Of a stretch of DNA of 64,000 bases, positions 19,835 to 39,287 are shown one piece after another. Below the pieces are notes generated by a model. That model was given only the letters and a program-made list of their open reading frames with translations, did not search any database and was not told the origin of the DNA. The DNA is from Flavobacteriales bacterium (GTDB lineage Bacteria; Bacteroidota; Bacteroidia; Flavobacteriales_F; PHOS-HE28). The DNA lies in NCBI GenBank assembly GCA_031411095.1, contig JANOAK010000023.1:13896-77895 (forward strand), given 5' to 3'. Positions within the stretch are counted from its first letter, which is position 1. Each line of letters opens with the position of its first letter. A program made the position numbers and the translations under genes.

Positions 19835-21490
19835 TCACTTTCCCGCGGCGCGCTCGGCGGCCACACTTTGGATCACGCGCTGCAGCGTATGCCGTTCGAT
19901 GGGCTTCACGATATGCTCATCAAAACCCGACATGCGTGACCGCTCACGGTCGCCTTCCTGGCCCCAGCCGGAGACCGCCACGATCCTCGCGCGCTGTCCC
20001 CAAGGCGATCTGCGCATGTGTTGGCAGGCCTCATACCCGTCCATGATGGGCATGCCAAGATCCATGAACACCACATCGGGCCGGAACATGGCGCCTACCT
20101 CCAGGGCTTGCGCGCCGTTGTGGGCCACTTCCACCTCATTGCCCGTTTTCCGAAGCACCATGCTCAGCGACAGGGCCCCATCGAGATTGTCGTCCACCAC
20201 AAGGATGCGCAGGGACGGAACAGGGGGCGCGGAGGCCTCCTGAACGTTGGCCCTGCTGGTCGTTGGCACCTCGGCAAGCGGCAGGCGCAGGACAAACTCA
20301 CTGCCGTGGCCTGCACCTTCACTGTGTGCCTCCAACGTTCCGTTGTGCATGGCGGTGAGCCGTTTGGAGATGTTCAGCCCGATGCCCAGTCCACCGGCAC
20401 CCTGTATGCTTCCATCCACCTGGGTGAACATGTCGAAGATGCCCTCGATGGAAGCCGGGTCGATCCCGATGCCGTTGTCCTTCACACGCAGCACGGCGTG
20501 ATCGCCATCGCGTTCCATACGCAGTTCGATGCGTCCACCCGGGGGGGTGTATTTGGCGGCGTTGTTCAACAAATTGGACAGCACCTGCGCCAAGCGTGTG
20601 CTGTCCCCGTTCACGAGATAGGTGCCTGGGGATACGCGCAGATCGAAGCGGTGGTGTTGCCCCTTCATGAGCGGCATACTGGTCTCTACAGCGGTGTTCA
20701 CGATGTTCGTGAGGTCCACCACCGCTTTGCGCAACACCAATTTGCCCCGGCTGATGCGGCTGAGGTCCATCAGGTCGTCCACCAGGCGCACCATGTGGTT
20801 CAGTTGGCGCAGCATCATCTGGCGGGTGCTTTCCACCAGTGCGGGGTCGGACCCCGCCTCCAGGAGTTGCAGACCGTTCATGAGCGGCGAGAGTGGATTG
20901 CGCAATTCGTGGGCGAGCGTGGCCAGGAAATGATCCTTCTGGCGGGCACTTTCCTCGAGCGCGTTCCGATCCTTCACGCGCTGCGTGATGTCGCGGGTGA
21001 CGGAGAGCAGCCCGATCGCGCTTCCTTCCGCATCGCGCAACACCTTCGTCATGGACTCCACGTGAAGGACCTCACCATTTCGGGTCACCTGGATGTTCTC
21101 GCCGCGCCAGTGTCCGTGATCGTTGAGGCTGGCCATGGCGGCCTGCTCAACCTCGGGGTGCGCCCACCGCGTTTCGTACAGTTCGTTCACCTGCAATCCC
21201 AGGACATCGGCCGATCGGCGTCCGTACTGCTTTTCCGCAGCTTCGTTGATATAGGTGATGTGATGATCGTTGTCGAGGGCGATTACGGCCTCGCTCACTT
21301 GCTGCAACACTTGACCCCGGAACCGGTTGCTGGCGCTTTCCGCGCTTTCAAGGATGAACAGGTCGGTACCGTTCACCAGTGCATCCACATGTCCGTTGCG
21401 GATGGCCTCGAGGGTATCCTCCAGTTCTGCCAGTCGTTCGCGTAGCCGCTCATTCTCCAGGTGCAGTGAAGGATCGCGTTGCGTGTTCAT
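19835..21490 (-). CDS. Hybrid sensor histidine kinase / response regulator (PAS-HisKA-HATPase-REC)
   Basis: PAS region. H-box HELRNPLSPL. N/G boxes (DNGIGI, GGLGIGL). C-terminal receiver ILVVDDN...FMDLGMP...K. Confidence 0.85.
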   Translation of the reverse strand: MNTQRDPSLHLENERLRERLAELEDTLEAIRNGHVDALVNGTDLFILESAESASNRFRGQVLQQVSEAVIALDNDHHITYINEAAEKQYGRRSADVLGLQVNELYETRWAHPEVEQAAMASLNDHGHWRGENIQVTRNGEVLHVESMTKVLRDAEGSAIGLLSVTRDITQRVKDRNALEESARQKDHFLATLAHELRNPLSPLMNGLQLLEAGSDPALVESTRQMMLRQLNHMVRLVDDLMDLSRISRGKLVLRKAVVDLTNIVNTAVETSMPLMKGQHHRFDLRVSPGTYLVNGDSTRLAQVLSNLLNNAAKYTPPGGRIELRMERDGDHAVLRVKDNGIGIDPASIEGIFDMFTQVDGSIQGAGGLGIGLNISKRLTAMHNGTLEAHSEGAGHGSEFVLRLPLAEVPTTSRANVQEASAPPVPSLRILVVDDNLDGALSLSMVLRKTGNEVEVAHNGAQALEVGAMFRPDVVFMDLGMPIMDGYEACQHMRRSPWGQRARIVAVSGWGQEGDRERSRMSGFDEHIVKPIERHTLQRVIQSVAAERAAGK

Positions 21491-21508: not shown

Positions 21509-21823
21509 TCAAGCGGTCAACCTGGCCAGGAGGCCTGCGGTGTTGGAGAGGTCGCCGATGAACCGGCGGGTGGGCGCGGGGAACTTCTTCACCAACGTGG
21601 GCAAGGCGATGAGCTGCTCCTCCATCGCCAGTTCGGGATGGTTCGCCACGTCAAGCACCTTCAGTTCGTAACGGCCCTTGAGATGCTCCTCGCACACTTT
21701 ACGCACATTGGTGATGGCCCTGGCGGAGAGGGCCGTTGTTCCTGACACATAGAGATGGAGCACGATACGCCCTGCGCGCGCCGATACATCCGGGAATTCG
21801 GCGGGAGTGCCGGAAGACTTCAT
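21509..21823 (-). CDS. kaiB: KaiB (circadian-clock / thioredoxin-like) protein, copy 2
   Basis: [12 protein letters not shown]...[10 protein letters not shown]...RFIGDLSN matches the KaiB fold motifs. ATGA overlap with copy 1. Confidence 0.8.
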
Positions 21824-22152
21824 CTCGTGGTCGAATTCAAGGGCAGCACGTCCAAGCCCACGAGCACCCGCTCCTTCTGGGACAGGTCGCCGATGATCTT
21901 GCGTATGGGTTCGGGCAATTTCCGGACCAGCGTGGGCACGGCGAGGATCTGGTCCCCTGCCGCCAGCTGCGGATGGAGGAGCAGATCGATCACTTCAAGG
22001 CTGTACCTGCCCGCAAGGTGATCCTCGCAGATGGCCTTCAGGTTCTTGATCGCCGCGATCGATTTGGGGGTTCCTCCGGCCACGTACAGGCGAAGCTGAT
22101 ATTCCGGCACAAGGTGGTGGATCGTGGTCTGTGGGGTTTTCCGTGAGGGCAT
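21820..22152 (-). CDS. kaiB: KaiB protein, copy 1
   Basis: [12 protein letters not shown]...[31 protein letters not shown] is a near-canonical KaiB sequence. Confidence 0.85.
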
Positions 22153-22157
22153 GGCGG

Positions 22158-23714
22158 TCAGTGTTTCTTCCCTTTCGTTCGGGAGGTTCCTTTTACCGGT
22201 CGTTCCACGGGCAAGCCCCTCCGCGTTTCCTGCCGCATCCCGAGAGCGCGTGCGCGGCCGGTGAGGACCTGGCCGTTCTGGACATACACATCCACCAGGT
22301 TGATGCCGTCATCGGACAGCACGAATTCCCGCACTTCGTTGGAGTGGGCCATGCCACGCGACTTCAGGAGTGTGAGCAGCCGGCTGCGTTCAGCGTTCTG
22401 TTCCACGTTGCGCAACATCAGCCACGTGTCCATCAGGGAGGAGACCCCGACCTCCGAATCCTCAAGCACGGTGGACTGCGCATCGGTGAGGCTGGTGAAC
22501 ATGGCGGTGATGTTCTTCACTTTCACATGATCGATCAGGCGCATGAGCATGGGCTTCACATCCTGGTCCCTGCGCTCCATGGTGAGGTTGCTGATGGGGT
22601 CCACCACCACCACGGCGGGATCTTTCTCGCGGATGAGGGAATGCATCATCACCAGATGGTCCTCCAGCCCGCTCAAGGTGGGTCGTGAGGCATGGATGGA
22701 CAACAGTCCTTTCTTCACCCAGCGCTCCAGGTCGATGCCGATGGATCGCATGTTGCGCATCAACTGGGAAGGCGATTCCTCGTAGGCGAAGAGCAACGCT
22801 CGTTCCCCGCGTTGGCAGGCGGCCTCCAGGAAGGCGGAGGAGATGCTGCTCTTGCCCGTGCCGGCCGAGCCGCTCACCAGGATGCTGCTTCCGCGGAAGA
22901 ATCCCTTGCCCCGCATCATGTCGTCGAGGGTGGGAATGCCGCTGGATACACGTTGGTTGCTGGCCTTGTGCTCGAGCATCAACGACGTGATGGGCAACAC
23001 GGAGATCCCCGAGGAGGTGATGAGGAAGGGATATTCGTTGCTACCATGTGCCGATCCGCGGTACTTCACGATGCGCAAACGGCGGGTGGAGATCTGGTCG
23101 CGGACCCGGTTGTCCAGCACGATCACACAATCGGCCACGAATTCCTCGAGGCCATGACGCGAGAGGGCATCCTTGCCACGTTCACCGGTGATCACCGCCG
23201 TAAGGCCGTGTTCCTTCAGCCAGCGGAAGAGCCGCCGCAGTTCAGCGCGCAGCACCGCCTCGTTGGGAAGGCTGGCGAAGAGCGCTTCCAAGGTGTCCAG
23301 CACCACACGCTTGGCGCCGATGCTCTTCACCGCATGGCCCAGGCGGATGAAGAGGCCGTCCAGATCGTACTCGCCGGTCTCCTCGATCTCGCTGCGTTCG
23401 ATGCGAACATGATCGATCACGATCTTCTTTTGCGCGACCAGTTTGTCCAGATCGAATCCAAGGGAGCGCACGTTGGCGGCCAATTCTTCGGCGCTCTCCT
23501 CGAACATGAGGAACACGCCGGGCTCCTTGAACTCGGTGGCCCCGCGAACAAGGAATTCGATGGCCATCATGGTCTTGCCACAACCGGCGCCCCCGCAGAT
23601 CAGCGTAGGCCTCCCCGCAGGGAAGCCCCCTGCGGTGATCTCGTCCAACCCCTGAATGCCGGTGGCGGCTTTGGGCAACAACACAGGTTTATTCTCAATT
23701 GGCATGACTACCAA
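22158..23714 (-). CDS. kaiC: KaiC (double RecA-like ATPase)
   Basis: Two Walker A motifs ([16 protein letters not shown]). [18 protein letters not shown]-terminus. ~518 aa two-domain architecture. Confidence 0.9.
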
Positions 23715-26785: not shown

Positions 26786-27280
26786 ATGAACAAGCACATG
26801 ACCCACGCAAAGAACACGATCTGCCTGTGGTACAATGGCGACGCCGAGGAGGCGGCCCGCTTTTACGCCAACACCTTCCCCGATTCCACCGTGAATGCCG
26901 TGTACAAGGCACCGGGCGATTTCCCAAGCGGAAAGCAGGGGGACGTGCTCACCGTGTTCTTCACCGTGCTGGGCATTCCCTGCATGGGGCTCAATGGGGG
27001 GCCAGCCTTCTCCCAGACCGAGGCCTTCTCGTTCCAGGTGGCCACGGTGGACCAGGCCGAGACCGATCGCTACTGGAACGCCATCGTGGGCAACGGAGGC
27101 CAGGCGAGCGCCTGCGGCTGGTGCAAGGATAAGTGGGGGGTCTCCTGGCAGATCACGCCCATCGCGCTCACGGAGGCGATCACCGATGCCGATCCTGCTG
27201 CGGCCAAGCGCGCCTTCGATGCCATGATGGGGATGCAGAACATCGACATCGCTGCCATCGAAAAGGCCAGACGGGGCTGA
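26786..27280 (+). CDS. VOC-family (PhnB / 3-demethylubiquinone methyltransferase-like) protein
   Basis: ICLWYNGDAEEAARFYANTFPDS...CGWCKDKWGVSWQI is the PhnB-like signature. Confidence 0.7.
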   Translation: MNKHMTHAKNTICLWYNGDAEEAARFYANTFPDSTVNAVYKAPGDFPSGKQGDVLTVFFTVLGIPCMGLNGGPAFSQTEAFSFQVATVDQAETDRYWNAIVGNGGQASACGWCKDKWGVSWQITPIALTEAITDADPAAAKRAFDAMMGMQNIDIAAIEKARRG

Positions 27281-27494
27281 TGGGGCGCAGAGCACCCGTG
27301 CAGAAAATGACCGATGCAATAGGCTTATTCCACCACTAAGCCGCAGGGTCATCCGCTCATCCAGGCTAAAGGCATGGATAGCGGAGAGATCAGGGCGTAT
27401 GCGGGAGGGCCCTGCACGGGCTGTGGATCCCCAGGCAAAGACTCGCATGGAGTGCAGCCACGGCACCGACAGGGGCATGGTTCAATTGTTGAGC

Positions 27495-27890
27495 AACGTA
27501 GGGCCCATGTTCGGCCGCAGTGCGCTAATGTTGGCCAACAATCCCCCGATGTTGGGCAATATTCGGCTGATGTTGGAGAACAATGCCCCCATGTTGGTCA
27601 ACATTCCCCCGATGTTGGACAACAATGTCCTGATGTGGGCTAACATTCCGCTGATGTTCGGCAACAATGCCCTGGTGTTGGTCAACATTCCGCCGATGTT
27701 GGGCAACACTGCCCTGATGTGGGGCAACATTCCGCTGATGTCGGACAACGAGCCACCTATGTAGATCAACATTCCGCTGTTGTTGGACAACGATCCACCG
27801 ATGTGGGTCAACATTCCCCTGATGTTGGGCAACACTGCCCTGATGTGGGTCAACATCCCGCTGAAGTTGGACAACAAACCCCCAATGCCA
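27495..27890. repeat. 21-bp tandem repeat (~19 copies; consensus CAACA(A/T)TCCNCTGATGTTGGG) = heptad period
   Basis: Direct reading of the sequence. The minus-strand frame stays open through the whole array (ORF 27482..28153, LPNIGGM/LTNTRAL heptads). The plus-strand frame contains a stop at ~27762. Confidence 0.85.
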
Positions 27891-27984
27891 GCACGCTGCA
27901 GCATTCGACGGCGCCGGTCGTGAGGTTCAAGCGCCAGTAGTATCGCAGCTGCCTGCGTGCCAGGGCAGCGGGGATCACCGACAA

Positions 27985-28021
27985 CTCGGGGCAGGCCGGC
28001 AAGAAGAAGGGGCGGAAGGAG
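27985..28021 (+). repeat. ~35-bp direct repeat copy A (..GGGGCAGGCCGGCAAGAAGAAGGGGCGGAAGGAG)
   Basis: One of three same-orientation copies (also ~31316-31348 and ~31923-31958), all intergenic, bounding gene modules of the island. Confidence 0.7.
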
Positions 28022-28146
28022 AACGGTCAAGCGCACGAGCGTTGACGCTTGCGCGAGTTGTGGGTTTTCCACAGCCAGGCGGACTATGAATGCGACGACG
28101 TTACTTTGAGCATCGGAGATTGACGATTTCCCCGCCATCAACAGCA

Positions 28147-29841
28147 ATGACAACCGCTCAGTTGACCCTCCTCGACCAGAGCGAGCTCTTGGAGCTTGTT
28201 CCTGCGCTTCCGCCGATTGAGGAAGGGGACAACCTCGGCGCCGTCTTCACCAAGGAATGGGTGGTGGATCTGATGCTCGATCTCTGCGACTATCGCGCGG
28301 AACATGACCTGTCGAAGATCCGGCTCTTGGAACCGTCCTGTGGTGATGGCGCGTTCCTCCAGTGCATCGTGAAGCGCCTGTCAACTTCGTTACGCACACA
28401 TGGCCACACCCTGAGCGATGCCCGCAACGCTATCCGCGCGTACGATCTGCAAAGCCGCAATGTGCAGGCTGCGCGCGAGCGAGTCGCGGAATTGCTCTTA
28501 GCTGACGGCTGGAACAACGTGAACGATCTCGTTGTGCACTGGATCCGCCACGCCGACTACCTGCTTGCACCCGACCCACCCCACTTCGATCTGGTGATCG
28601 GCAACCCGCCTTACATCCGTGCGCAGGAGATACCCGATGAGCGGCGCAACACCTACATCCGACTGTGGGACACCATGACCATGGGCACCGACATCTTCGT
28701 CGGCTTCATCGAGAAGGGCCTTCGCTCCTTGAAGCCCGAGGGCCGTCTGTGCTTCATCGTTGCGGATCGCTGGCAGCACAACGCCTACGGACGCAAACTC
28801 CGCAAGCTCATCAGCGAGCGCTACGCCGTGGATGCCATGTTCGAGATGCACGGCGTCGATGCCTTCGCAGCGCCCGTATCCGCGTATCCGGCGATCACCC
28901 TCATCCGGAGTGGCAAGCAGGGGTCTGTTCGGTACGCCAGCGCGCAGAGCGATCTCAACGCAGAAGGCGGGGAACGGCTCAAGGAATGGTTCGGACAGAA
29001 TGAGCCCGGTGCGACGCACGACCCGATGTTCTCGGCCTGCGTGCTGCCCGATTGGTTCCGCACCGAGGAGATCTGGCCCAGCGGCTCGCCTGAAGTGCTG
29101 GCCTTCCTGGAGGACATGTCCGAGCGCTTCCAAACGTTGGAAGATGCAACCACCGGTACCAAAGTGGGCATCGGCATTGCCACCGGTGCTGATGAGGTCT
29201 TCATCACCGATGATGCGGACTGCGTCGAAGCTGAGCGGTTGATTCCGCTGCTCACCTCAGCGGACATCACCACGGGCCGCGTGCGATGGAAAGGCAACTA
29301 CCTCGTGAACCCTTGGGACGAAAGTGGTCAGTTGGTTGACTTGTCGCATCGTCCCAAGTTGAGCGCCTATTTCGAGAAGCATTCGCCCATCCTGCGGAAG
29401 CGCCATGTGGCACAGAAGCGCATGGAACGCTGGTACGGTACCATCGACAAAGTGCATGCAGGCTTGCGCGAACGGCCCAAGCTGGTGCTGCAGGACATGA
29501 GCAGCACCATATCACCCGTGCTTGATACGCAGAACTATCCGCACCACAATCTGTACTGGATAACGAGCAGGGTGTGGGACCTCGAGGTGCTTGGTGGTCT
29601 CTTGCTTTCGGAAGTCGCCGAGTTATTCGTGCGCGCCTATGGCGTGAAAATGCGCAACGGCACCATGCGCTTCCAATCACAATACTTGCGCATGATCAGG
29701 GTGCCCGCTCCTTCAAGCCTCTCAACGGATCTTCAGGAGCGCTTGCGCACCGCTTTCCGAGAACGCGACCGCGCGATGGCCACACAAGCCGCATTGCTCG
29801 CCTACAATCTGGAGACGCTACCGAATTTCAAGGGGCGATGA
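28147..29841 (+). CDS. N6-adenine-specific DNA methyltransferase (gamma-class, Eco57I/TaqI-like)
   Basis: Motif I LEPSCGDGAFL and motif IV GNPPYIR. Start probably at MTTAQL (ORF opens at 28090). Confidence 0.8.
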   Translation: MTTAQLTLLDQSELLELVPALPPIEEGDNLGAVFTKEWVVDLMLDLCDYRAEHDLSKIRLLEPSCGDGAFLQCIVKRLSTSLRTHGHTLSDARNAIRAYDLQSRNVQAARERVAELLLADGWNNVNDLVVHWIRHADYLLAPDPPHFDLVIGNPPYIRAQEIPDERRNTYIRLWDTMTMGTDIFVGFIEKGLRSLKPEGRLCFIVADRWQHNAYGRKLRKLISERYAVDAMFEMHGVDAFAAPVSAYPAITLIRSGKQGSVRYASAQSDLNAEGGERLKEWFGQNEPGATHDPMFSACVLPDWFRTEEIWPSGSPEVLAFLEDMSERFQTLEDATTGTKVGIGIATGADEVFITDDADCVEAERLIPLLTSADITTGRVRWKGNYLVNPWDESGQLVDLSHRPKLSAYFEKHSPILRKRHVAQKRMERWYGTIDKVHAGLRERPKLVLQDMSSTISPVLDTQNYPHHNLYWITSRVWDLEVLGGLLLSEVAELFVRAYGVKMRNGTMRFQSQYLRMIRVPAPSSLSTDLQERLRTAFRERDRAMATQAALLAYNLETLPNFKGR

Positions 29842-30542
29842 AGAAGGACCATCGAAAGGAAGTCCTAGCCCTGTGGAAGCTGAGGTCCAAGGCGGAGAAG
29901 AAGGCGCGCAAGGGAGGCAACACCGACCCCGGTCTTCGCGCAGGCGTGACTTCTGGCCGACACTTGGACCCCTTGTCCCAGCTGATGCGAAGCATCTTCA
30001 TCGATGCGGGCATACCGGCGGCGGATGTGCATTGCGGGAGCACGAACTTGGAGATACCCGGATTCTATCGACCGCAGAAGAAGTGGGATGTGGTAGTAGT
30101 ACACAAGGGTGTACTGGTGGCGGCCGTGGAGTTCAAGAGCATTTTGGGTAGCTACGGCAACAACATGAACAACCGTACCGAGGAATCCCTGGGGAACGCT
30201 ACTGATCTGCTAGAAGCCGCCGAACAAGGCCTCATCGGCACAAGACCGCCGTGGCTGGGCTTCGTCTTCTTCATGCAGGATGATGAGCGCTCCCGCAAAG
30301 GAGGCAAGAGCGCCAAGCAACCGCATTTCAGTATCGATCCCGAATTCGTTGGCGCGAACTATCAGAGCCGCGCTTCGATCTGGTTGCGGCGCTTGCTGAT
30401 GAAGCGGCTCTACAACGCTGCTTGGTATGCATTGGTCGATCCTGCACAGGGTGTGGAGGGTGTGCGCGAGCCGGATGCCGAACTAAGTTGGGCCAAGTTC
30501 GAGGCAGCGATACGTGGAAGGGTTGGGGAGGTGTTGGCGTAG
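29838..30542 (+). CDS. Putative type II restriction endonuclease (PaeR7I/XhoI-like size and context)
   Basis: ATGA overlap with the MTase stop. 234 aa, acidic/Lys-rich core. Assignment rests on synteny and size, not on a recognised catalytic motif. Confidence 0.45.
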   Translation: MKKDHRKEVLALWKLRSKAEKKARKGGNTDPGLRAGVTSGRHLDPLSQLMRSIFIDAGIPAADVHCGSTNLEIPGFYRPQKKWDVVVVHKGVLVAAVEFKSILGSYGNNMNNRTEESLGNATDLLEAAEQGLIGTRPPWLGFVFFMQDDERSRKGGKSAKQPHFSIDPEFVGANYQSRASIWLRRLLMKRLYNAAWYALVDPAQGVEGVREPDAELSWAKFEAAIRGRVGEVLA

Positions 30543-30625
30543 GGTTTTCACGCCCTACGCATGACAGGTCGTTGGTGACTCCAAAATGGCACGGGCTTTT
30601 CTATCGCAGGCCTATCCATATCGCC

Positions 30626-31243
30626 ATGACAGCAATCCGGCACGCACTTCAAGGAGCAAGGGAGCAGTTCGACTTCTGTACGCATGCACTGTCGTACTTT
30701 GAGAAGAAGGATGAATCATCCCGGAAGGTTGGAGCGAACGTCATTCTTCAGTCCGGCCGTGCTATCACGTATGGCATGGAGACCTTGGCCAAAGCCAGCC
30801 ATGAATTCGCGACGTGGTACAGGCCATATGGAGCTGAGCTGCATGCTGATCCCATTCTGAAGTATTTCCGGGAAGTCCGGAATGTGATTGTTCACCGGTC
30901 TGGCAGGATTGAGTTGAACCACATCTCAACCGTACCCATTAATGACCCCAAGCCAGGAGCCATCGAGGAACTCATCGCCGACGGTTCGACCATTGACCAT
31001 ATGAACATCGACTTTCTCAAGAACAGGAGATACTTGGTTGTCCGAACCCCCTATGGAAGGCGGGAAGAGAGGGACGTTCCTCAAAGGCGGGAAGGACCGT
31101 GGTGGCTGTTGGTCGATGTACAATCCTACTTCAAAGACGCCCCAGTGGAGTTCGCGGGCGTAACAGTGGTTGAAAGTTGCCAGCGGTATGTGCGTTTCCT
31201 TGGTCGTCTAATCCAGGATGCTGAAGTCAGGTTTGGCATGTAG
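30626..31243 (+). CDS. Hypothetical protein (possible HEPN-like Rx4H motif), island cargo
   Basis: Lower-GC ORF after the R-M pair. RNVIVH motif. No confident homology. Confidence 0.35.
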   Translation: MTAIRHALQGAREQFDFCTHALSYFEKKDESSRKVGANVILQSGRAITYGMETLAKASHEFATWYRPYGAELHADPILKYFREVRNVIVHRSGRIELNHISTVPINDPKPGAIEELIADGSTIDHMNIDFLKNRRYLVVRTPYGRREERDVPQRREGPWWLLVDVQSYFKDAPVEFAGVTVVESCQRYVRFLGRLIQDAEVRFGM

Positions 31244-31315
31244 TACGAAATGCGAGGCTACGAGTCACAGACTCACGGCAGTGGAGGGAGCAAAACTGCC
31301 GTATGCATGACCGAG

Positions 31316-31348
31316 CTGGGGACTGGCAAGAAGAAGGGGAGGAGGTAG
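31316..31348 (+). repeat. ~35-bp direct repeat copy B
   Basis: CTGGGGACTGGCAAGAAGAAGGGGAGGAGGTAG. Intergenic, between the hypothetical gene and the RusA-like gene. Confidence 0.7.
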
Positions 31349-31408
31349 ACTGGGGAGTAAGTTCGAAGACGCCGGGGCTCCACCTCGGGACACCATGGCG
31401 GATTAGAC

Positions 31409-31873
31409 TCACGTAGAGTCCTGCCGTCGAACACAGAAGAAAATGCCCGGTGGCTCTTGGACGTGTTTAGAAGCTTCGATGTGAAAGACCTGCTTGTCAT
31501 CGACAAACAGTATACCCTTCACACAATCAAGAAGCGTCTTGACCATATTGTCCAGGTCAACACGTTGCACGTATTCCCTGGGGCCATTGATTGAGATCAA
31601 GACATTCAGTCTCTCTTGGTACGGCATATCAGCATCGCGCCCCAGTAATTCGACCTGCTTCCTAAGAGCTTCAACGAAGGGCCGATACCGTTCCTTTCGG
31701 TTCTTCATTTGGCCCGTTGGCAACGGAGTGTCAAGAATGGCCATAAACACCTTCTCCCACCCCACCGTGTAAAAGGTAGCCGGCGATTCTAGTCTATCCT
31801 CCTCGGGAATCTCCTCCGGTGGAATGGAGGAGACCTGTCCCTCGCGGAGAAAGTCGAGCATTCGGGGTTTCAT
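31409..31873 (-). CDS. RusA-like Holliday-junction resolvase (endodeoxyribonuclease)
   Basis: ...VDLDNMVKTLLDCVKGILFVDDKQVFHIEASK matches the RusA catalytic Asp cluster. Typical phage/island gene. Confidence 0.5.
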   Translation of the reverse strand: MKPRMLDFLREGQVSSIPPEEIPEEDRLESPATFYTVGWEKVFMAILDTPLPTGQMKNRKERYRPFVEALRKQVELLGRDADMPYQERLNVLISINGPREYVQRVDLDNMVKTLLDCVKGILFVDDKQVFHIEASKHVQEPPGIFFCVRRQDST

Positions 31874-31922
31874 GGCCGATAAAGATAACTGGACACAATT
31901 GCTCCATTGCGCAGGCGAGCGA

Positions 31923-31958
31923 CCGCTTCACAACGGGGACTACGCAAGAAGAAGGGGC
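31923..31958 (+). repeat. ~35-bp direct repeat copy C
   Basis: ACGGGGACTACGCAAGAAGAAGGGGCGGAAGTAGAG. Intergenic, between the RusA-like and HNH-domain genes. Confidence 0.7.
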
Positions 31959-31983
31959 GGAAGTAGAGCGGGATGGTGGCTGG

Positions 31984-33156
31984 TCAGCCGCGCTTGCCGG
32001 TTGCAGGGTTGAGGCGATGCAGAACCCAAGGAGTTATCACTTCCATTATCGACTTAACCACTTCATCAATCATCGCAGTGGTAATAGTTGTGCCGTCCGG
32101 GTATTTTCCGAGGGATTGCTGAATGGCTCGCCCGATGAGACCTTCCCGATGACTGTCTTCTTGCCTCTCCATAGCAATTGAGAGGACACGATGAAATCTC
32201 CGGCGCACCTCGTCAAACGGTTTGGCATCCTTGCGGATGAAGAGGTCAGTAAGCTGGTCCCGGGTATAACGAAGCGATATTGTTCGGTCTCTCTCAAGGT
32301 TCGCCACGACGTCGTACACGTACGTCTTGTCCAGTTCTCTACCGTCATAGTTGTCGTTCAATCGCACAATGAAATTGCGAGTGTTGAACAGTTCCACGTA
32401 TGCATAAAGTACCCTTTGCGCCGGATCGCCAACTAGCCGCAAGACATGGCTTACTTCTGTCCGGCCGGATTCATAGATGGGTTTCACGGGATAGTGCATC
32501 CACACAACATCTTGATCGTTGCTCCCTTCCACATAAGGCAACAGATGAGCGATGTGTTTCCTCAGACCACCTCGGTAAGTGAAGTAGCCGATCGCGATCT
32601 TGGTAATTGCACGGAAGACCTCCTTACTTCCCACATTAGCTTCAAAGTGGATCCTATCATCCAGATAGTCCTGCGACCGAGTAGCGGACTTGATTGCCGC
32701 CTCAACATCCAACTGAGCATATTTGCGCTTAAACCCGTTTAGGATCCTGCGAAACTCGCTCTCATCTCTTGCTGAGATAGAAATCGTAATCTGGTCGCCA
32801 TCGATTACTTCTTCAACAGTCGGTTTGGCCATTCTAGGGCTTCCATCTCGCTCAAGCGAAACGGCTTCACCGGTTGAGGTCAGCGTCCCTCGTATTGGTT
32901 GTGGCTCTCCTCTATCACGTTTGATGATCAGGAGGTTGGCCAAGTCATTGTTCTGATCGCTCAGCGCATTATCAACCTCAGAGCCAAACCTCGAATTGCA
33001 TGTCCGGCAGAGAATCTTCGCCTTGAGCCATCCTCCACAAGCATTGGGGATGATGTGCTCCTTGCTTGCGTTGGTGCTCGAGAGGATTGTATCGCAACGA
33101 TAGCATCGTTCATTTGGCATTGTTCTATGGTTTGGCCGGTGAAGCAACGAAGGCAT
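31984..33156 (-). CDS. HNH-endonuclease-domain protein with a large uncharacterised C-terminal domain
   Basis: N-terminal CYRCDTILSSTNASKEHIIPNACGG...CRTCNSRFG (C-x2-C...H...C-x2-C HNH signature). Start at 33120 or 33156. Low GC. Confidence 0.6.
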   Translation of the reverse strand: MPSLLHRPNHRTMPNERCYRCDTILSSTNASKEHIIPNACGGWLKAKILCRTCNSRFGSEVDNALSDQNNDLANLLIIKRDRGEPQPIRGTLTSTGEAVSLERDGSPRMAKPTVEEVIDGDQITISISARDESEFRRILNGFKRKYAQLDVEAAIKSATRSQDYLDDRIHFEANVGSKEVFRAITKIAIGYFTYRGGLRKHIAHLLPYVEGSNDQDVVWMHYPVKPIYESGRTEVSHVLRLVGDPAQRVLYAYVELFNTRNFIVRLNDNYDGRELDKTYVYDVVANLERDRTISLRYTRDQLTDLFIRKDAKPFDEVRRRFHRVLSIAMERQEDSHREGLIGRAIQQSLGKYPDGTTITTAMIDEVVKSIMEVITPWVLHRLNPATGKRG

Positions 33157-33306
33157 TGGGATTGAAGTCAGATAGCCGACGTTCTCAGATGTGGCGGAGC
33201 GAAAATGCACGCGCGATAATCAGGACGGTGTAGCGACTGAGCAGGGGCCGGTTGCCTAGGTGGGAGTTCCATTGATGTAAGGGTATCATGCTCTATCTCC
33301 TTCGGC

Positions 33307-36081
33307 CTATCGGTAGAGATCAACAAAGGCCCTTTCCAGTTGAGGATCTCGATGTTCTTGGAGGTGTGCCGAAAGCTGTACGCGGATGGCGTCGTGTTTG
33401 CGCATCTCGGCGAAGTAGTATTTGGTTGGATACGCAGCAATCCACTTTACATCGAACAGCGTATAGTCAAAGCCGGCCATGTCAAGGAGCCAGTCATAGT
33501 AGCTGTCGAAGCCGCGCAAGCCAGAGAATCTCTCGTGCCTAAGGTCGATGCCTTCCTTGAAGCACAGATTGATGAACATATCCAAGATGAGACGGCGTTT
33601 ATCTTCCTCTCCAGACATGGCCGTTCTGAAAGTAGGGTGGTCGTGAACAGGATGGGCGGCTAGGAGCAGCTTGTCGAGGAACTCGTCCTCGACCTGCAGT
33701 ACATCGTGGATAACAGCATCATAGTAGAGGTCTGGTTCAAATCTGTTTCTCAGCCGTGCCTCGATGCTCTGTTCGATCATCCCCCTGGACTCAGCATTGG
33801 ATGAAAGCCGGTGTATCGGAATCAACCAATCGCCTGGATGCTCGTGCTTGCAGAGGGGGCATTTTCCGGTGGTCAGGTCAATGAAGCGTTTAACCTCGGC
33901 TTTGGAAAGGGCCATTTGGCCATGATGTCTCAATGCTTCGGACAGAGCACCAAGCATATTCTCGTCGTGCAACTTCTGGGTCTTGGGAACGCTGCGTAGC
34001 AAGGCCTCCAACGTTGCCTTATCAATCAGTTTGGCCTTCCTGTGTACGAATCGTTGAATGTGTTCAGTGATACCGCGATTGAGCAAGGTGTTGGCACGGA
34101 GAGCCTCTGGTAGCTTGCGGGCAATTACATTCACATCGGCTGCATTCAAGTTCGATAGCGACGCTAGTACGAAGAGGTTGTCGACCAATGTGTTGTACTT
34201 CTGAATGAAGGACGTGTTGGTCTTGCCAAACGACTTCCTGAAAGCCTTGGCCACTTCAATGGCATCATCGAGAATTCGAGTAATCACGGCCACTAACGAT
34301 TCGCCGGACGAGGCCGATGGTTTGTACTGAATCTCCTTGAGATGGTGGCGATGGAAGTGTTTCAGAATGCGCTTCGGTTCGCTGTGCCATACCAATTTGT
34401 TAATTATCCAGTCGTCAAAATGGGGCAAACGACTCTTCTGCTCAGGTGCAATAGCATGCGAGGCGAAGAGACCCTCGCTGAAAATGTCCGTAATCTGGCG
34501 GTACTCATCGAAGCAATCGAAGTACACGAAGTCCTTGCTCAGGAATTCATCCAGGTCAGCGTAGTCCTTGATCAACTCACTGATGTGACTGTTCGAGCTC
34601 CAGCCACCCCGTAGCTGGCTATGATAGTGGTCCCGTATCTCAGTGACCGTCTTGTACAAGACATACATCGTTTCCGAATGGAAACGCCCCTTGTCGATCC
34701 ATTCGTGAAAGCGACTGTTTTTGTCCGCCTTCGGCAGGGTCATTCGAATCGCCGCAAGATCTATCGTGGCGAGTCGTTCGATTAACGCGGTAGGCTCCTG
34801 CTCCCCCCAGTAGTTGTTTCGAAGGTGCGGCCTCAGTTTGGACAAGCTATACGAACTGAGGACGTATTGCGACCACTCCTCTTTGCGCTTATGTTCTGCA
34901 CTTGCTTGCTCAAGCAACTCCGCAGCCTCAACGAAGTTGCCAAGCTTGTAGTGGGAGTAGGCCAAGAGCTGGAGATTGTTCGTCTTGTCGACCCCTATTG
35001 AGATAGCCGCGAAGGCTCCCCGAAAATCCAGTCGATCTATTCGGCACCTCACGCAATCACACTTTACGCTATCACTGTAGCGGACGCTTGCCCACTCGCG
35101 TGACTTGTGAGCAGCGATGTAGAAGACAAGGCTGGACGAAAGGCGCTTGAGGATGTAACGAATCTTTTTCTGCGGATTGGTGACCCCCTTTGTCCAGGAG
35201 CTGTCATTGAACTGCACCTTGCCCGGGCCAGTAATTTTCACGGCCTTGAACAGATCGATCAGCTCCTCATTGTCAACCGTCAGGGTGAATTGATCATGGC
35301 GTGGATGGAATGAACTGCTCACACGGAAAGGATAGCTCCGTGTGAAGTACTCACTTGGCATATGGTGCAGTTCACCGAACCGCTCGAACATGTACCGATA
35401 GAGTTGTTCCAGGATCGGTCGAGTGCGGTCGACGGAAATCTGAACGGTATCCTCTCCAAGAAGATGGCGGCTGCGATCTTGTAGCTGGCGTTCGAACAGA
35501 AATTGCTTGCTTGCTTCGATATCTTTCTTGAGGCTGATCAATCGCTTTGGTAGCAGCCTGCCGTTCTTTCGAAGGCAACGCTGAGGATCAATGCGTATTT
35601 GAATGCTCTCGCCATCCCGACGTGACTGACCGCTGGCAATAGATTCGACTTTGCTTGCATACCCGTGGTCGAAGTCTAGTTGAATGGGGCACCAGTAAAT
35701 GGACTTGGTCTTCAAGTCGCAAACTGTCACAATGCAAACATTTTCGTGGTCTTTGGCGAGATATCGGAGTGTCTCAGCACGATCAATCTTGTGGGTGAGA
35801 AATCCCTTGTTGGCGCCTCTGACCTTCTCTGCTAGCGCCTTGTCAGTTCCCTTGTTCTGGATAAATACCGTTTGTATAAGGTCAAGGGAGGGAAGATCAT
35901 CGGGAGTCTTCGCCGTTGTGTTTTGAAATTCTACGGCAAAGTCGATTCCCCTCTCTTTGTGATATTGGTTAAACTTCAATTCGCTCTTTGTAGACTGAGA
36001 AAGTTCCCGTAACGTACCCTGCATGAGTTCGTTCGCTTCGTCTTCGATCTCATCTGTTGTTTTGGGGCGCTTGTTCATCAA
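33307..36081 (-). CDS. 924-aa protein with N-terminal DUF4365-like (restriction-endonuclease-fold) domain, long alpha-helical middle region and C-terminal Cys-rich motifs
   Basis: N-terminus ...ERGIDFAVEF...VFIQNKGTDK... fits the D-E-(Q)K nuclease-like pattern. No P-loop. CPLCKHEH and CDCVRCR motifs. GC ~50% versus a ~65% background. Same strand as, and adjacent to, the HNH-domain gene. Confidence 0.55.
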   Translation of the reverse strand: MMNKRPKTTDEIEDEANELMQGTLRELSQSTKSELKFNQYHKERGIDFAVEFQNTTAKTPDDLPSLDLIQTVFIQNKGTDKALAEKVRGANKGFLTHKIDRAETLRYLAKDHENVCIVTVCDLKTKSIYWCPIQLDFDHGYASKVESIASGQSRRDGESIQIRIDPQRCLRKNGRLLPKRLISLKKDIEASKQFLFERQLQDRSRHLLGEDTVQISVDRTRPILEQLYRYMFERFGELHHMPSEYFTRSYPFRVSSSFHPRHDQFTLTVDNEELIDLFKAVKITGPGKVQFNDSSWTKGVTNPQKKIRYILKRLSSSLVFYIAAHKSREWASVRYSDSVKCDCVRCRIDRLDFRGAFAAISIGVDKTNNLQLLAYSHYKLGNFVEAAELLEQASAEHKRKEEWSQYVLSSYSLSKLRPHLRNNYWGEQEPTALIERLATIDLAAIRMTLPKADKNSRFHEWIDKGRFHSETMYVLYKTVTEIRDHYHSQLRGGWSSNSHISELIKDYADLDEFLSKDFVYFDCFDEYRQITDIFSEGLFASHAIAPEQKSRLPHFDDWIINKLVWHSEPKRILKHFHRHHLKEIQYKPSASSGESLVAVITRILDDAIEVAKAFRKSFGKTNTSFIQKYNTLVDNLFVLASLSNLNAADVNVIARKLPEALRANTLLNRGITEHIQRFVHRKAKLIDKATLEALLRSVPKTQKLHDENMLGALSEALRHHGQMALSKAEVKRFIDLTTGKCPLCKHEHPGDWLIPIHRLSSNAESRGMIEQSIEARLRNRFEPDLYYDAVIHDVLQVEDEFLDKLLLAAHPVHDHPTFRTAMSGEEDKRRLILDMFINLCFKEGIDLRHERFSGLRGFDSYYDWLLDMAGFDYTLFDVKWIAAYPTKYYFAEMRKHDAIRVQLSAHLQEHRDPQLERAFVDLYR

Positions 36082-36217
36082 TCTCTAATTTGTCGACAAC
36101 TCTTGTTTAAGCGTAACCCGCGTTAGGGACAGCAGTGGAAAGCCCGGAGCCGTCTTCGGCGAGGACTTGGAACGAATGGCCCGACGGCGAGTCTTCGAGC
36201 CGGAACGCCCAAATACT

Positions 36218-39193
36218 TCAAGCCTTCACCACCACCTCCCCAGCCTTCCTCAAATGCCCCTTCCTCGCCTTCCTGATCCTACAACTCACCACCTTGTACT
36301 CGGGGCACATGGCCAGTGAGTCGCTCACGCTGCTGGTGATGAGGTTGAGCATCATTTCCGGGAAGTGGAACGTGCTGCTTAGGATGCCGGGCTTCACCTC
36401 GTCGGTGATCAGCGCCTTGATGTCCACTTTGCCGCGCGCGCTTTCCACGCAGACCATGTCGCCCTCGGCGATGCCGTGCTTGGCGGCGTCGGCGGGGTTG
36501 ATCATAAGCACGTCCTCGGTGAGGATGGCGCCATTGCCGGTGCGCCGCGTCATGGCGCCGCAGTTGTAGTGCTCCAGCTCGCGGTTGGTGGTGATGATGT
36601 AGGGGAATTCCGCCTGGTTGGCCTTCACCTCGGGGCTCATCTCCCACGCGTTGAAGTAGAAGTGGCCGAGGCCGCGCTTGAAGGTGTCGGTGTGCAGGAT
36701 CTTGGTGTCGGTGCCGTCGGCGTTCACGGGCCATTGCTTGCCTTGCTCGCCGAGCTCGTCCCACTTCACGCCTTTGAAGAACGGTGCGATGCGGCTGATC
36801 TCTTGCAGGATCCATTCGGGGTGGTACACTACAGGGGCGCCTGCCTGCCGGTCAGGCAGGTTGCCGCTCTTGCGACCGGTCTTCGCCGCGTAGCGCTCCA
36901 TGATGTCGCAGATGATCTGGCCATCGGGCTTGGTGCCTTCCACCGGAGCCACGGCGGCGTTCACGCGTTGGATGCGGCGCTCGCCGTTGGTGAAGGTGCC
37001 GCTCTTCTCCAGGAAGCTTGCGCCGGGTAATACGACGTGTGCGAGCTTGGCGGTCTCGGTCATGAAGAGCTCCTGCACCACGAAGAGGTCGAGCGCGCCG
37101 AGGGCCTTGCGCACGTGGTTGGTGTTGGGATCCGTCTGGCCCATGTCCTCACCGCATACCCACATCGCTTTCAGGGTGCCGGCGAGCGCGGCATCATACA
37201 TCTGCGGGATCTTCTTGCCGACGACGTTCGGCACGTGTACGCCATAGAAGTCGTCGTAGAGCTTGCTGTACTCCGGCGTGTCCACGGCGAAGTAGCCGGC
37301 GCCCTGGTGCGGCTGGCAGCCCATGTCGGCGGCGCCCTGCACGTTGTTCTGTCCGCGCAGTGGGTTCACGCCCACGCCGCGGCGGCCGATGTTGCCGGTC
37401 ATCATGGCGATGTCAGCGATCTGCATCACGGTGAATGTGCCCTGGTAATGTTCGGTGACGCCCAAGCCGTGGAAGCTCATGGCAGCGGGTGAGCTGGCGT
37501 AGGCGATCGCCGCTTGGCGCACCAACTCGCGGTCCACACCCGTGACCTTCTCCATCTCGGCGATGTCGGTGCTGAGCAGTTCCTTCTTGAAGTCTTCGTA
37601 GCCCTCCGTGCGCGTGTCGATGAACTCCTGCTTCACCAGGCCCTCGCTCACGATGTAGTACATGAACATGTTGAGCAGTGCCACGTTAGTACCCGGGCGC
37701 AACTGCAGGTGGTACTTCGCGTAGCGGGCCAGTTCGGTGCGGCGCGGGTCGATCACGATGAGGGTCTTCCCCTTCATGATCTGCTGCTTGATCTTGGCGC
37801 CGGTGACCGGGTGCGCGTCCGTTGGGTTCGCACCGATGATCATGATCAGCTGCGTGTCCTTCAGGTCGTCGATGCTGTTCGTCGCAGCACCGGTGCCGAA
37901 GGTCTTCTGCATGCCGAGGGCCGTTGGGCTGTGGCACACGCGCGCGCAACTGTCGATGTTGTTGGTGCCCACCTGCACGCGGAAGAATTTCTGCATGAGG
38001 TAGTTCTCCTCGTTCGGGCAGCGCGCGCTGCTCACGCCGGCCAGCGCATCGGGTCCGTGCTTCTCTACGATGTCGGCGAAGCGGTCCACGATGAAGTCAT
38101 AGGCTTCGTCCCAGGTGGCCGGTACCAATTCTCCCCCCGGGCTCCCGACCCGGGGCTTCCGGATGAGCGGAGTGCGGAGGCGCTCCGGATGATCATAGAA
38201 GTGGAAAGCATAGCGGCCTTTCAAGCAGGTATGCCCCTGGTTCGATTCCGCATCGTAGGGCGCGGTGATGGCGACGACCTTGTTGTCCTTCACCTTCACT
38301 TCCAGGTTGCAGCCCACGCCGCAATAGGTGCACACGCTGCGCACCACCTCATCGGCCTTGGTCTCCTTGCTCTTGAACACATCGGTGATGGCGCTTGTGG
38401 GGCAGGCCTGCGCACAGGCGCCGCAGCTCACGCAATCGCTCTTGAAGAAGCTCTCGTCGGTGCCCTTGGCGATGTGGTTGTCGAAGCCGCGGCCGGCCAT
38501 CGTGAGCACGAACTCGCCCTGCACTTCGTCGCAGGCGCGCACGCAGCGGTAGCAGCTGATGCACGCGCTGAGGTCGCTCACCATGTACGGATGGCTCGTG
38601 TCCATCGGCGTGCTCAGGTGGTTCTTCCCTTTCGGGTAGCGCACCTGGAGAGCCTGCCCCGGGCCTGACCCGGGGAAGCCGATCTGCTGGACGACGTTGT
38701 AGAGCTCGTTCGCGCCGTGGTCCTCCTTCTTCAGCCGCTCGGTGTCGTAGTCGGTGAGCACCAGCTCGATGATGTTCTTCCGCAGCCGCTCCATGCGCGG
38801 GCTGTTGATGGTGATGTACATGCCTTTGCCAACGGGCGTGTGGCAACTGGCCATCACTTTCGCAGGCGTGAACATCATCTCCGGCGGGCCGTCGCCTGAG
38901 CCGATATCCGCGTTCGCCGGCGTTGGCACTTGCAGCTGCACTTCCACGGAACACACGCGACAGCTACCGAAGGGTTCCAAGTTCGGTGCATCACACAACG
39001 TGGGAACAGGGTTCGGGCCGATATGCCGGCGCATGAAGGCCAGCATCGTTTCGTTCTTGTTGATCGGGTACGCCTTGCCGTCGATGTAGGCGACGTCGAC
39101 CTCGGTGGCCACGGCGTTGGACGAGGCGGGAGCAGACTGCTGGCGCGCGGAAGGAGGGGCGCTGGTGCCGGTCTTGGCTTGGGGCGTGTTCAT
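36218..39193 (-). CDS. Formate dehydrogenase alpha subunit (molybdopterin oxidoreductase with N-terminal 2Fe-2S/4Fe-4S domains; FdsA/FdhF-like)
   Basis: 2Fe-2S region, CxxCxxCxxxCP 4Fe-4S motifs, MopB catalytic region (TYCGVGCNLEV...). ORF extends to 39295 but the start is likely at 39193 (MNTPQAK), which avoids overlap with the cyclase gene. Confidence 0.85.
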   Translation of the reverse strand: MNTPQAKTGTSAPPSARQQSAPASSNAVATEVDVAYIDGKAYPINKNETMLAFMRRHIGPNPVPTLCDAPNLEPFGSCRVCSVEVQLQVPTPANADIGSGDGPPEMMFTPAKVMASCHTPVGKGMYITINSPRMERLRKNIIELVLTDYDTERLKKEDHGANELYNVVQQIGFPGSGPGQALQVRYPKGKNHLSTPMDTSHPYMVSDLSACISCYRCVRACDEVQGEFVLTMAGRGFDNHIAKGTDESFFKSDCVSCGACAQACPTSAITDVFKSKETKADEVVRSVCTYCGVGCNLEVKVKDNKVVAITAPYDAESNQGHTCLKGRYAFHFYDHPERLRTPLIRKPRVGSPGGELVPATWDEAYDFIVDRFADIVEKHGPDALAGVSSARCPNEENYLMQKFFRVQVGTNNIDSCARVCHSPTALGMQKTFGTGAATNSIDDLKDTQLIMIIGANPTDAHPVTGAKIKQQIMKGKTLIVIDPRRTELARYAKYHLQLRPGTNVALLNMFMYYIVSEGLVKQEFIDTRTEGYEDFKKELLSTDIAEMEKVTGVDRELVRQAAIAYASSPAAMSFHGLGVTEHYQGTFTVMQIADIAMMTGNIGRRGVGVNPLRGQNNVQGAADMGCQPHQGAGYFAVDTPEYSKLYDDFYGVHVPNVVGKKIPQMYDAALAGTLKAMWVCGEDMGQTDPNTNHVRKALGALDLFVVQELFMTETAKLAHVVLPGASFLEKSGTFTNGERRIQRVNAAVAPVEGTKPDGQIICDIMERYAAKTGRKSGNLPDRQAGAPVVYHPEWILQEISRIAPFFKGVKWDELGEQGKQWPVNADGTDTKILHTDTFKRGLGHFYFNAWEMSPEVKANQAEFPYIITTNRELEHYNCGAMTRRTGNGAILTEDVLMINPADAAKHGIAEGDMVCVESARGKVDIKALITDEVKPGILSSTFHFPEMMLNLITSSVSDSLAMCPEYKVVSCRIRKARKGHLRKAGEVVVKA

Positions 39194-39287
39194 GGCGAAG
39201 GCGAATGGAACGTGCTCCACGAAGATAGCGGTGCGGCCTGCCCCGACGATGTTCAATGACCGGTCACGCCCTTGCGACGAAGCCCGC

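Follow-up and report, generated by a model that had tools for sequence, protein, structure and literature searches.

Three short repeats of one orientation lie between the genes of an island in a 64-kb stretch of DNA from an uncultured Flavobacteriales bacterium (contig JANOAK010000023.1, positions 13,896 to 77,895; the whole stretch is hereafter called the window). Comparison with related genomes places this island at an insertion hotspot beside the 3' end of an fdhA-like gene and identifies the repeat as specific to that hotspot, where it recurs between unrelated gene modules in a fixed orientation, is conserved over a purine-rich box alone and joins re-assorted arms, with no structure of its own and no integrase nearby. 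We see about an even chance that the repeats constitute a lineage-specific junction element belonging to the scaffold of this fdhA-side insertion hotspot. The proposal that the box is an attachment (att)-type junction repeat, copied as cassettes were inserted one after another by a recombinase that is unlinked or has been lost, is in our judgement evenly balanced; under this proposal we infer both that the box is the site of crossover and that the recombination is site-specific.

Three copies of the repeat in the window

The consensus GGGG..GCAAGAAGAAGGGG[C/A]GGA[A/G]G[G/T]AGA is represented by three + strand copies in the window:

27988-28026, + strand: repeat copy 1, with the box core GCAAGAAGAAGGGGCGGAAGGAGA at 27999-28022 (nhmmer E 3.9e-6)
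31318-31353, + strand: repeat copy 2, with the box core at 31326-31349 and 2 core mismatches
31935-31971, + strand: repeat copy 3, with the box core at 31944-31967 and a right arm reaching 31992

A search with the 20-mer at up to 3 mismatches returned 3 matches in the window against 0.01 expected from shuffled sequence (0/100 shuffles reached 3), and a profile search of the whole 64 kb gave zero matches besides copies 1, 2 and 3. All three copies are intergenic with respect to credible genes. A mechanically called open reading frame (ORF) on the - strand (27482-28153) overlaps copy 1, and its probable start is an ATG at 27904, to the left of the repeat. An earlier note on this DNA had reported three same-orientation repeats that are always intergenic, and both statements hold; copy 3 starts ~12 nt to the right of the position that it gave (~31923), and the end coordinate in the note, 31958, falls inside this copy.

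Conservation of the box and re-assortment of its arms

Conservation of the repeat is confined to a box of 24-34 bp that is rich in purines and non-palindromic, CCGGCAAGAAGAAGGGGCGGAAGTAGA(A/C)CGG. In the longest copies (27913-28030 of the window, copies X and Y of the related locus L060, copies b-d of L027 and the copy of L077) it belongs to an element of ~75-140 nt, in which (G)ACCGGTCGTGGGGTTCAAGCGCC, an optional small hairpin, GACGGGGCAGCGGGGA and the box follow one another. The window contains one such element:

27913-28030 (~118 nt), + strand: full-length junction element, with 5' GCCGGTCGTGAGGTTCAAGCGCC..., a small hairpin, GGGGCAGGCCG and the box; copy 1 is its 3' end

Copies 2 and 3 of the window hold only the 3' ~40 nt of the element. 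Stretches beyond the box are shared piecewise among the loci: L060 6505-6565 matches window 27914-27974 at 79%, L027 copies b-d are a variant with a 6-nt deletion, and the piece upstream of copy 2 (31252-31285, ACGAGTCACAGACTCACGGCAGTGG) resembles a module that occurs three times in L052. The right arm of copy 3, GCGGGATGGTGGCTGGTCAGCCGCG, is common to L027 copy a, with 88% identity over 49 nt between L027 2050-2098 and window 31992-31944.

Alignment of 14 anchored copies from the window and its relatives located the conservation sharply. Mean pairwise identity is 0.82-0.90 in the box, 0.41-0.45 in the 12 nt on each side and 0.27-0.32, the background level, farther out. The arms themselves occur in differing combinations. 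Copy 1 of the window and the copy of L049 have the left arm GGGGCAGGCCG in common and different right arms, and copies 2 and 3 of the window share a GGGGACT left arm, again with different right arms. Conversely, the right arm (C/G)CGGG(G/A)TGG..GGTCAG is common to window copy 3, L027 copy a and L060 copy X, each with a different left arm, and one left arm is common to L060 X, L060 Y and L077, which have three different right arms. Such re-assortment of arms is the pattern expected if crossovers take place inside the box.

An insertion hotspot in related genomes

Related loci (designated by L numbers) were fetched through fdhA homologues (80-92% identity) and through members of the protein clusters of the restriction-modification (R-M) module of the window. 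One of them, L033, is syntenic with the window: both have the fdhA-like gene at one end and the Reg_prop and DUF1801 genes at the other. In a clade of Flavobacteriales with ~60% GC, the hotspot is bounded by the 3' end of the fdhA-like gene and by the conserved genes that come next. It is occupied by R-M, HicAB, PIN and Fic toxin modules, a bacterial ubiquitin-like (Bub)-type system, proteins secreted by the type IX secretion system (T9SS) and many unknown genes. Hardly any two genomes agree in this content, and the region is an additive hotspot. The relatives contribute 11 further copies of the repeat (14 in all), which separate variable modules and, where the flank can be seen, lie downstream of fdhA in this region:

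L033: 2 copies, flanking a T9SS-type gene
L052 (= L059 = L072-76): 1 copy and 1 truncated copy, in the variable region downstream of fdhA
L060: 2 copies (X, Y), after Fic and S41 peptidase genes
L077: 1 copy, after the Bub cassette
L049/L050: 1 copy, on contigs from a sister strain of the window organism
L027: 4 copies in 4.5 kb, separating a T9SS gene, HicAB, DUF433-PIN and a 193-aa gene; fdhA is beyond this short contig

The modules next to the box are unrelated to one another, both within L027 (HicAB, DUF433-PIN, T9SS) and L060 (Fic, S41 peptidase) and in L077 (Bub cassette). In L051, L053 and L057 the hotspot is present with no clear box.

The orientation of the box is constant. Wherever fdhA is visible (the window, L033, L052/L059/L072-76, L060 and L077, 5 genomes), the box is antiparallel to it, and each genome with several copies has them in one orientation (window 3/3, L027 4/4, L033 2/2, L060 2/2), independently of the strands of the neighbouring genes. 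As same-orientation copies they are direct repeats, which is also the arrangement of att remnants in additive islands. Comparison with the sister strain L049/L050, whose PhnB gene is 96.8% identical to that of the window, further isolates the box: homology stops at 27283, 3 nt past PhnB, resumes over the box alone and stops again. Because the two strains share the box alone and differ in both flanks, the box is a fixed point between replaceable segments. Breakpoints between strains are thus found at the box, hybrid arms are found across the 14 copies, and the right edge of the R-M module is found away from any box. Serial insertion at an att-like site or duplicated target, as suggested in the earlier note, is the reading best supported by this fixed-orientation recurrence at the hotspot and by the re-assortment of arms, although its attC variant did not survive the tests described below.

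Distribution beyond the hotspot

Scans of genomes, metagenomes and viral contigs were made with the canonical box pattern only. In 185,579 species-representative genomes the exact degenerate 20-mer gave 42 single matches across all phyla, and among these the flanks of the extended repeat are common to only L027 and L033, both of them Flavobacteriales metagenome-assembled genomes; any one species-representative genome holds at most 2 canonical copies. The match of L015 (Saprospiraceae) was considered as a possible family member and rejected as chance, lying within a VanW-like coding sequence of a low-GC genome. A scan of a metagenome collection returned 6 matches, all unrelated or due to chance, three viral-contig scans returned chance matches or none, and BLAST of the full element against plasmids and phages returned nothing meaningful. 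Nor was any copy found outside the hotspot in the fetched related loci or in the other ~60 kb of the window. Because the scans yield chance matches and a few ~60% GC Flavobacteriales, the canonical box can be regarded as rare and lineage-specific. Scatter through the genome, which had been named as the result that would speak against insertion at this site, is not seen for the canonical pattern in the window or in the species-representative, metagenome or viral scans, and the many dispersed copies typical of repetitive extragenic palindromic (REP) sequences or miniature inverted-repeat transposable elements (MITEs) are found neither there nor in the fetched related loci.

Recombination at the 3' end of fdhA

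The fdhA 3' region (window 36322-36411) is duplicated at downstream module boundaries in four of the related loci (profile E 3.5e-24 to 3.4e-6):

L033: 3970-4008 and 4359-4497
L052: 3576-3689 and 4072-4135
L053: 13651-13740
L057: ~13601-13704

The breakpoints of these duplicates cluster between TCCGG and GAAGTGGAA. These duplicates beside an intact gene show that recombination has recurred at the fdhA end while the gene itself was kept, and they look like the outcome of repeated insertions there, each of which restored the gene. As the fragments at its module boundaries attest, the hotspot is prone to recombination quite apart from the box. In L033 the box directly abuts an fdhA fragment (E 6.6e-7), a joint of which L052 seems to retain a degraded form. 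About 25 nt upstream of its box, L077 has 15 nt that match the fdhA core. No fdhA 3' duplicates were found in the window or in L060, and the fdhA 3' profile detected no remnant beside the window copies. Separately, a 13-nt exact match, ATTTCCGGGAAGT, connects 30864-30876, in the hypothetical 205-aa gene of the island, with 36354-36366, in the fdhA breakpoint region; it is possibly due to chance, and the fdhA-profile match around it (30844-30890) has an E of 0.02.

Gene modules of the island

The island and its borders in the window comprise the following genes:

26786-27280, + strand: PhnB-like gene, the last left-side gene common to the sister strain L049/L050
28063-30545, + strand: type II R-M module (Pfam, PADLOC), XhoI-type, with M at 28147-29841 and R at 29838-30542, joined by an ATGA overlap
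30626-31243, + strand: hypothetical 205-aa gene between the R-M module and copy 2, a singleton cluster
31409-31873, - strand: RusA-like gene (Pfam RusA), a single-gene module between copies 2 and 3
31984-36078, - strand: low-GC module (0.51) between copy 3 and fdhA, with HNH_5 at 31984-33120 and a 923-aa protein at 33307-36078
36218-39295, - strand: fdhA-like molybdopterin oxidoreductase (Pfam), the conserved anchor of the hotspot, with synteny in L033, L051-L053, L057, L060 and L077

DUF1428 and PhnB-like genes stand on the left side of the island. The annotation matches the gene content given previously (R-M plus a hypothetical gene, RusA, and HNH plus a giant protein), and the hypothetical 205-aa gene has zero family matches. 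GC content drops in steps over the three copies, from 0.61 in the left core to 0.59 in the R-M module, 0.53 in the hypothetical and RusA genes and 0.51 in the HNH and 923-aa genes, and is 0.63 in fdhA. Because GC differs by module (0.59 / 0.53 / 0.51), the copies appear to lie at the joints of modules of different origin.

A proposed mechanism and the points that weigh against it

If the box were a site of site-specific recombination, a new segment, circular or incoming, would carry a box and enter by recombination between it and a box of the existing array, with the crossover falling within GCAAGAAGAAGGGGCGGAAGTAGA. Each insertion would be left flanked by two same-orientation boxes with hybrid arms, older modules would be pushed away from the anchor by newer insertions, and later deletions and secondary insertions would blur the module edges. 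As no integrase is local, the enzyme in such a scheme would either act in trans or have been lost; it could be a recombinase encoded elsewhere in the genome or one carried on elements that have since decayed. An extension of this scheme, which we consider unlikely, is that the box is the site of an undescribed Flavobacteriales cassette-capture system. Such a system would be an analogue of the integron, with double-stranded, non-palindromic, purine-rich sites of ~30 bp, anchored at the fdhA 3' end and served by a remote recombinase, and would assemble defence and toxin-antitoxin modules.

Several observations weigh against an att-type site, and the absence of a local recombinase is the main weakness of that reading. 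No integrase, transposase, resolvase or other recombinase domain was detected in the ~40 window ORFs tested. The gene tables precomputed for the related loci list none either, which extends to those loci what had been noted for integrases in the window. On direct reading, the box also lacks dyad symmetry of the kind present in the core sites of tyrosine or serine recombinases. Its 3' half resembles the fdhA core GGAAGTRGAACG over GGAAGT(A/G)GAACG at p about 0.05, a score equalled by 5% of random windows; derivation of the box from the fdhA core, for which this is the sole match, is kept as a lead only.

The edges of the modules add further points of this kind. The R-M module (28063-30545) is 90% identical to modules in L060/L061/L062, where its neighbours differ and no box is adjacent, and in the window the shared module begins 37 nt after copy 1 and ends 770 nt before copy 2. 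The hypothetical gene is outside the shared module, as homology to L060 stops at 30545. RusA homologues are present in seven contigs of 51-57% GC that share only the ORF 31419-31873 with the window and carry no box, and no donor attP is therefore seen. The earlier proposal that the copies delimit modules accordingly holds in part only: the right edge of the R-M module falls 770 nt short of the next copy, and the homologues of RusA are without the repeat. Since the relatives of both RusA and the R-M module lack it, the box belongs to the recipient array and not to the travelling gene.

Turnover and constraint complete the points on this side. Seven metagenome contigs of one species (those carrying the P0008 protein) do not differ in their arrays, which indicates that the array does not turn over fast; L052 and L059 are 99.8% identical, and no gain or loss of cassettes at strain level was seen between them or among the 7 P0008 contigs. 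The copies of L049 and L060 (X and Y) are among several that have decayed, which means that constraint on the box is not uniform, and the number of known copies is only 14.

Alternative explanations

We regard as possible, though doubtful, that the box is the best-preserved part of a passive intergenic mosaic repeat of ~75-140 nt, which would be duplicated together with pieces of the array. It would then serve at most as a short homology handle, for RecA-dependent or homology-facilitated illegitimate recombination, with no dedicated recombinase. Longer versions of the repeat with extra shared modules and optional hairpins do exist (27913-28030; L060 X/Y; L027 b-d), the duplicated fdhA fragments resemble Campbell-type or homology-driven events, module edges are only partly at the box and no integrase is nearby. 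The hotspot also contains other direct repeats of ~60-110 nt and 80-89% identity, with L060 8134-8250 and 8794-8886 flanking HicAB and L052 4959-5068 and 5740-5852 flanking SnoaL plus a box. As these other families flank single modules, the purine-rich box is not the sole junction repeat of the region. Against a passive repeat, however, the 24-34 nt of the box are at the lower limit for RecA-driven exchange, and the fall from ~0.9 identity to background within ~12 nt, among paralogous copies whose flanks are unrelated, fits box-focused crossovers or selection better than random decay. The strict single orientation across five genomes is likewise difficult to accommodate.

A small non-autonomous mobile element that prefers this region, whether it resembles a MITE or is the target of a site-specific transposase (IS110-type or other), is quite improbable. 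The copies are short, multiple and variable in length, and those of full length have GACCGGTC or CCGG motifs at both ends, but the box has no palindromic hairpin, as REP or MITE sequences would, no terminal inverted repeats and no consistent target duplication. Copy number of the canonical box per genome is very low, and all copies are in one orientation. As a specific end or target, GACCGGTC itself was rejected: the window has 10 sites with this palindrome, most of them within genes, yet the element is found only in the hotspot.

We likewise give little credence to a cis-acting site without a role in recombination, such as a sequence to which a silencer, partition or regulatory protein binds, or an insulating RNA signal without structure. 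Conservation of the box without its flanks, its intergenic location and the 21-bp-period arrays with palindromic units near it in the window and in L060 would all be compatible with such a site. Its orientation, on the other hand, is independent of the genes (upstream of M, downstream of the hypothetical gene, upstream of the RusA start and downstream of HNH), decayed copies are tolerated, and no copy has a terminator-like site, a U-tract or a sigma-70-type promoter pattern. A Bacteroidetes-type promoter (TTG ... TAnnTTTG) was also considered and is absent, on direct reading, from both strands of the box. Folds of the repeats as RNA or DNA are no better than those of shuffled sequences (z -0.7 to +1.2 for the window copies and -1.6 to +0.4 for the L027 copies), a consensus fold computed from seven full-length copies has an energy of -0.89 kcal/mol and next to no covariation, and Rfam has zero matches to the element even at E = 10. 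The folding of the repeats that had been called for thus revealed no structure beyond that of shuffles, and the terminator or small RNA proposed in the earlier note is not supported, given the absence of a fold, a U-tract or an Rfam match and the independence from neighbouring gene orientation.

An integron-type attC array of the kind known as a cluster of attC sites lacking an integrase (CALIN) would share with this locus a series of small modules with a repeat behind each, some of them toxin-antitoxin modules like those of chromosomal integrons, and the lack of an adjacent integrase, but it is effectively refuted by the structure tests, as R''/R' boxes (RYYYAAC ... GTTRRRY) are absent from both strands of the 14 aligned copies and their flanks, no end-to-end imperfect hairpin forms (DNA fold and consensus energy as above), gene orientations are mixed and the repeat does not travel with its cargo (RusA homologues; R-M in L060-L062). 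The attC-like identity suggested at first, which would call for R/L boxes and a hairpin, was therefore discarded. The intI gene with attI and Pc that heads the array in a complete integron is likewise missing, with no integrase Pfam match in the tested window ORFs or the related gene tables.

Four further identities were tried and rejected. A dif/Xer site does not fit a box without dyad symmetry, and the cumulative GC skew climbs nearly without interruption across the window and does not switch at the island. A coding remnant reading KKKGRK and stop (C AAG AAG AAG GGG CGG AAG TAG) has its stop in 6/7 of the first matches, but upstream indels break the frame; in L027 the box follows a stop codon in a different frame from that of this peptide. 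A tRNA-derived att site was suggested by the 5' part GTGGGGTTCAAGCG, which is T-arm-like, but the complementary stem is missing, ARAGORN and Rfam were negative, and the window contains no tRNA. A homing site of the HNH protein was dismissed because the other box-carrying loci have no HNH gene.

Other features of the island and hotspot

To the left of copy 1, the window carries a 21-bp tandem array (27445-27924; 16.9 copies) with higher-order periods of 42 and 126, in which each unit contains a TGTTGNNCAACA palindrome. On the - strand the array reads as a heptad (L..I...) coiled-coil ORF at 27482-27904 (or up to 28153), and 4/6 frames are open; with weak, sub-threshold Pfam matches to Baculo_PEP_C and Collagen_mid, it may be a repeat protein or a protein-binding array. 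A second array of 21-nt period (GYGCGATC-N13; Tandem Repeats Finder period 63), unlike that of the window in sequence, is located at L060 8930-9200, between HicAB and a DUF4326 gene and upstream of the same R-M module.

The RusA-like protein has an N-terminal extension of ~60 aa ahead of its Pfam match (residues 82-146 of 154) and no phage neighbours. Its nearest homologues, 69-88% identical, are on contigs of lower GC, and one of them adjoins an insertion sequence transposase of the IS3 type (L069). A Flavo-1-like RNA match (RF01705), on the strand opposite to fdhA and directly past its stop codon, occurs at the same position in the window (36111-36190, + strand, 29.2 bits) and in L060 (17351-17428, 33.2 bits), against a gathering score of 42; it was not found in L033, L052, L057 or L077. 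Elsewhere in the hotspot, L077 9727-12403 encodes DUF2188, LRAT, Multi_ubiquitin, a ThiF-type E1 (DUF6791) and BubE, a Bub system directly beside the box, and L057 13913-15732 holds a different R-M module (C5 DNA methylase and NgoMIV-type endonuclease) at the equivalent position, just past the fdhA remnant. Outside the island, two KaiB genes and one KaiC gene (21509-23714, - strand) adjoin a PAS histidine kinase / response-regulator hybrid (19835-21490, - strand) in a KaiBC-type cluster.

Significance and comparison with known systems

Were the box a true crossover site, it would mark a hotspot of cassette accretion in uncultured Flavobacteriales that operates without a local integrase or a tRNA target, and it would provide a handle to find the recombinase and to predict the entry points of defence and toxin-antitoxin genes; the source contigs of this lineage include wastewater and freshwater metagenomes. 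Were it only a passive mosaic repeat, the locus would still provide a clean example of a flexible island that grows by addition and has the 3' end of a protein-coding gene as its anchor, and nothing more.

Among known repeats and insertion systems, several share part of these features. Neisseria intergenic mosaic elements (NIMEs), 50-150 nt long, are lineage-specific mosaic repeats between genes that are targeted by recombination or integration; they are dispersed, present in many copies and bounded by inverted dRS3 repeats. The repeat described here is likewise a lineage-specific mosaic intergenic repeat, but its copies are few, confined to one hotspot and without inverted termini. Xer-dependent modules (integrative mobile elements exploiting Xer (IMEX) at dif; pdif modules of Acinetobacter) have no recombinase of their own, use short sites and a host enzyme in trans, and accumulate in tandem. 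A dif-type site is a 28-bp sequence with an 11-6-11 dyad architecture, the chromosomal site is at the GC-skew switch, and pdif sites alternate in orientation. The hotspot modules resemble these in lacking their own recombinase and in being bounded by short sites, whereas the box has no 11-6-11 dyad, all its copies are direct and the locus is not at a GC-skew switch.

With integron arrays and CALINs the locus has in common small modules with a repeat at one end, toxin-antitoxin modules and, in the case of CALINs, no need for an adjacent integrase. It differs from integrons in that the box has no attC boxes or folded bottom-strand hairpin and stays with the array, in its mixed gene orientations and in the lack of attI, Pc and intI.

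By analogy, the nearest known kind would be the additive islands formed by serial integration with scattered att remnants, such as the tycheposon islands of Prochlorococcus and the tandem islands at tRNA genes. In tycheposons, serial integration at one site moves older insertions inward and leaves att remnants scattered in the island (bioRxiv 10.1101/2020.12.28.424599). Unlike the repeats of such islands, the box is not a partial tRNA, its similarity to the anchor gene reaches only p about 0.05, and it is non-palindromic and purine-rich; the modules here are very small (0.6-4 kb), and the examined loci contain no integrase or fragment of one. Like these islands, on the other hand, the locus combines a fixed hotspot at a conserved anchor gene with same-orientation short direct repeats between independently acquired modules, places newer, compositionally foreign DNA beside the anchor, mixes intact with decayed repeats and carries a cargo of defence and toxin-antitoxin genes.

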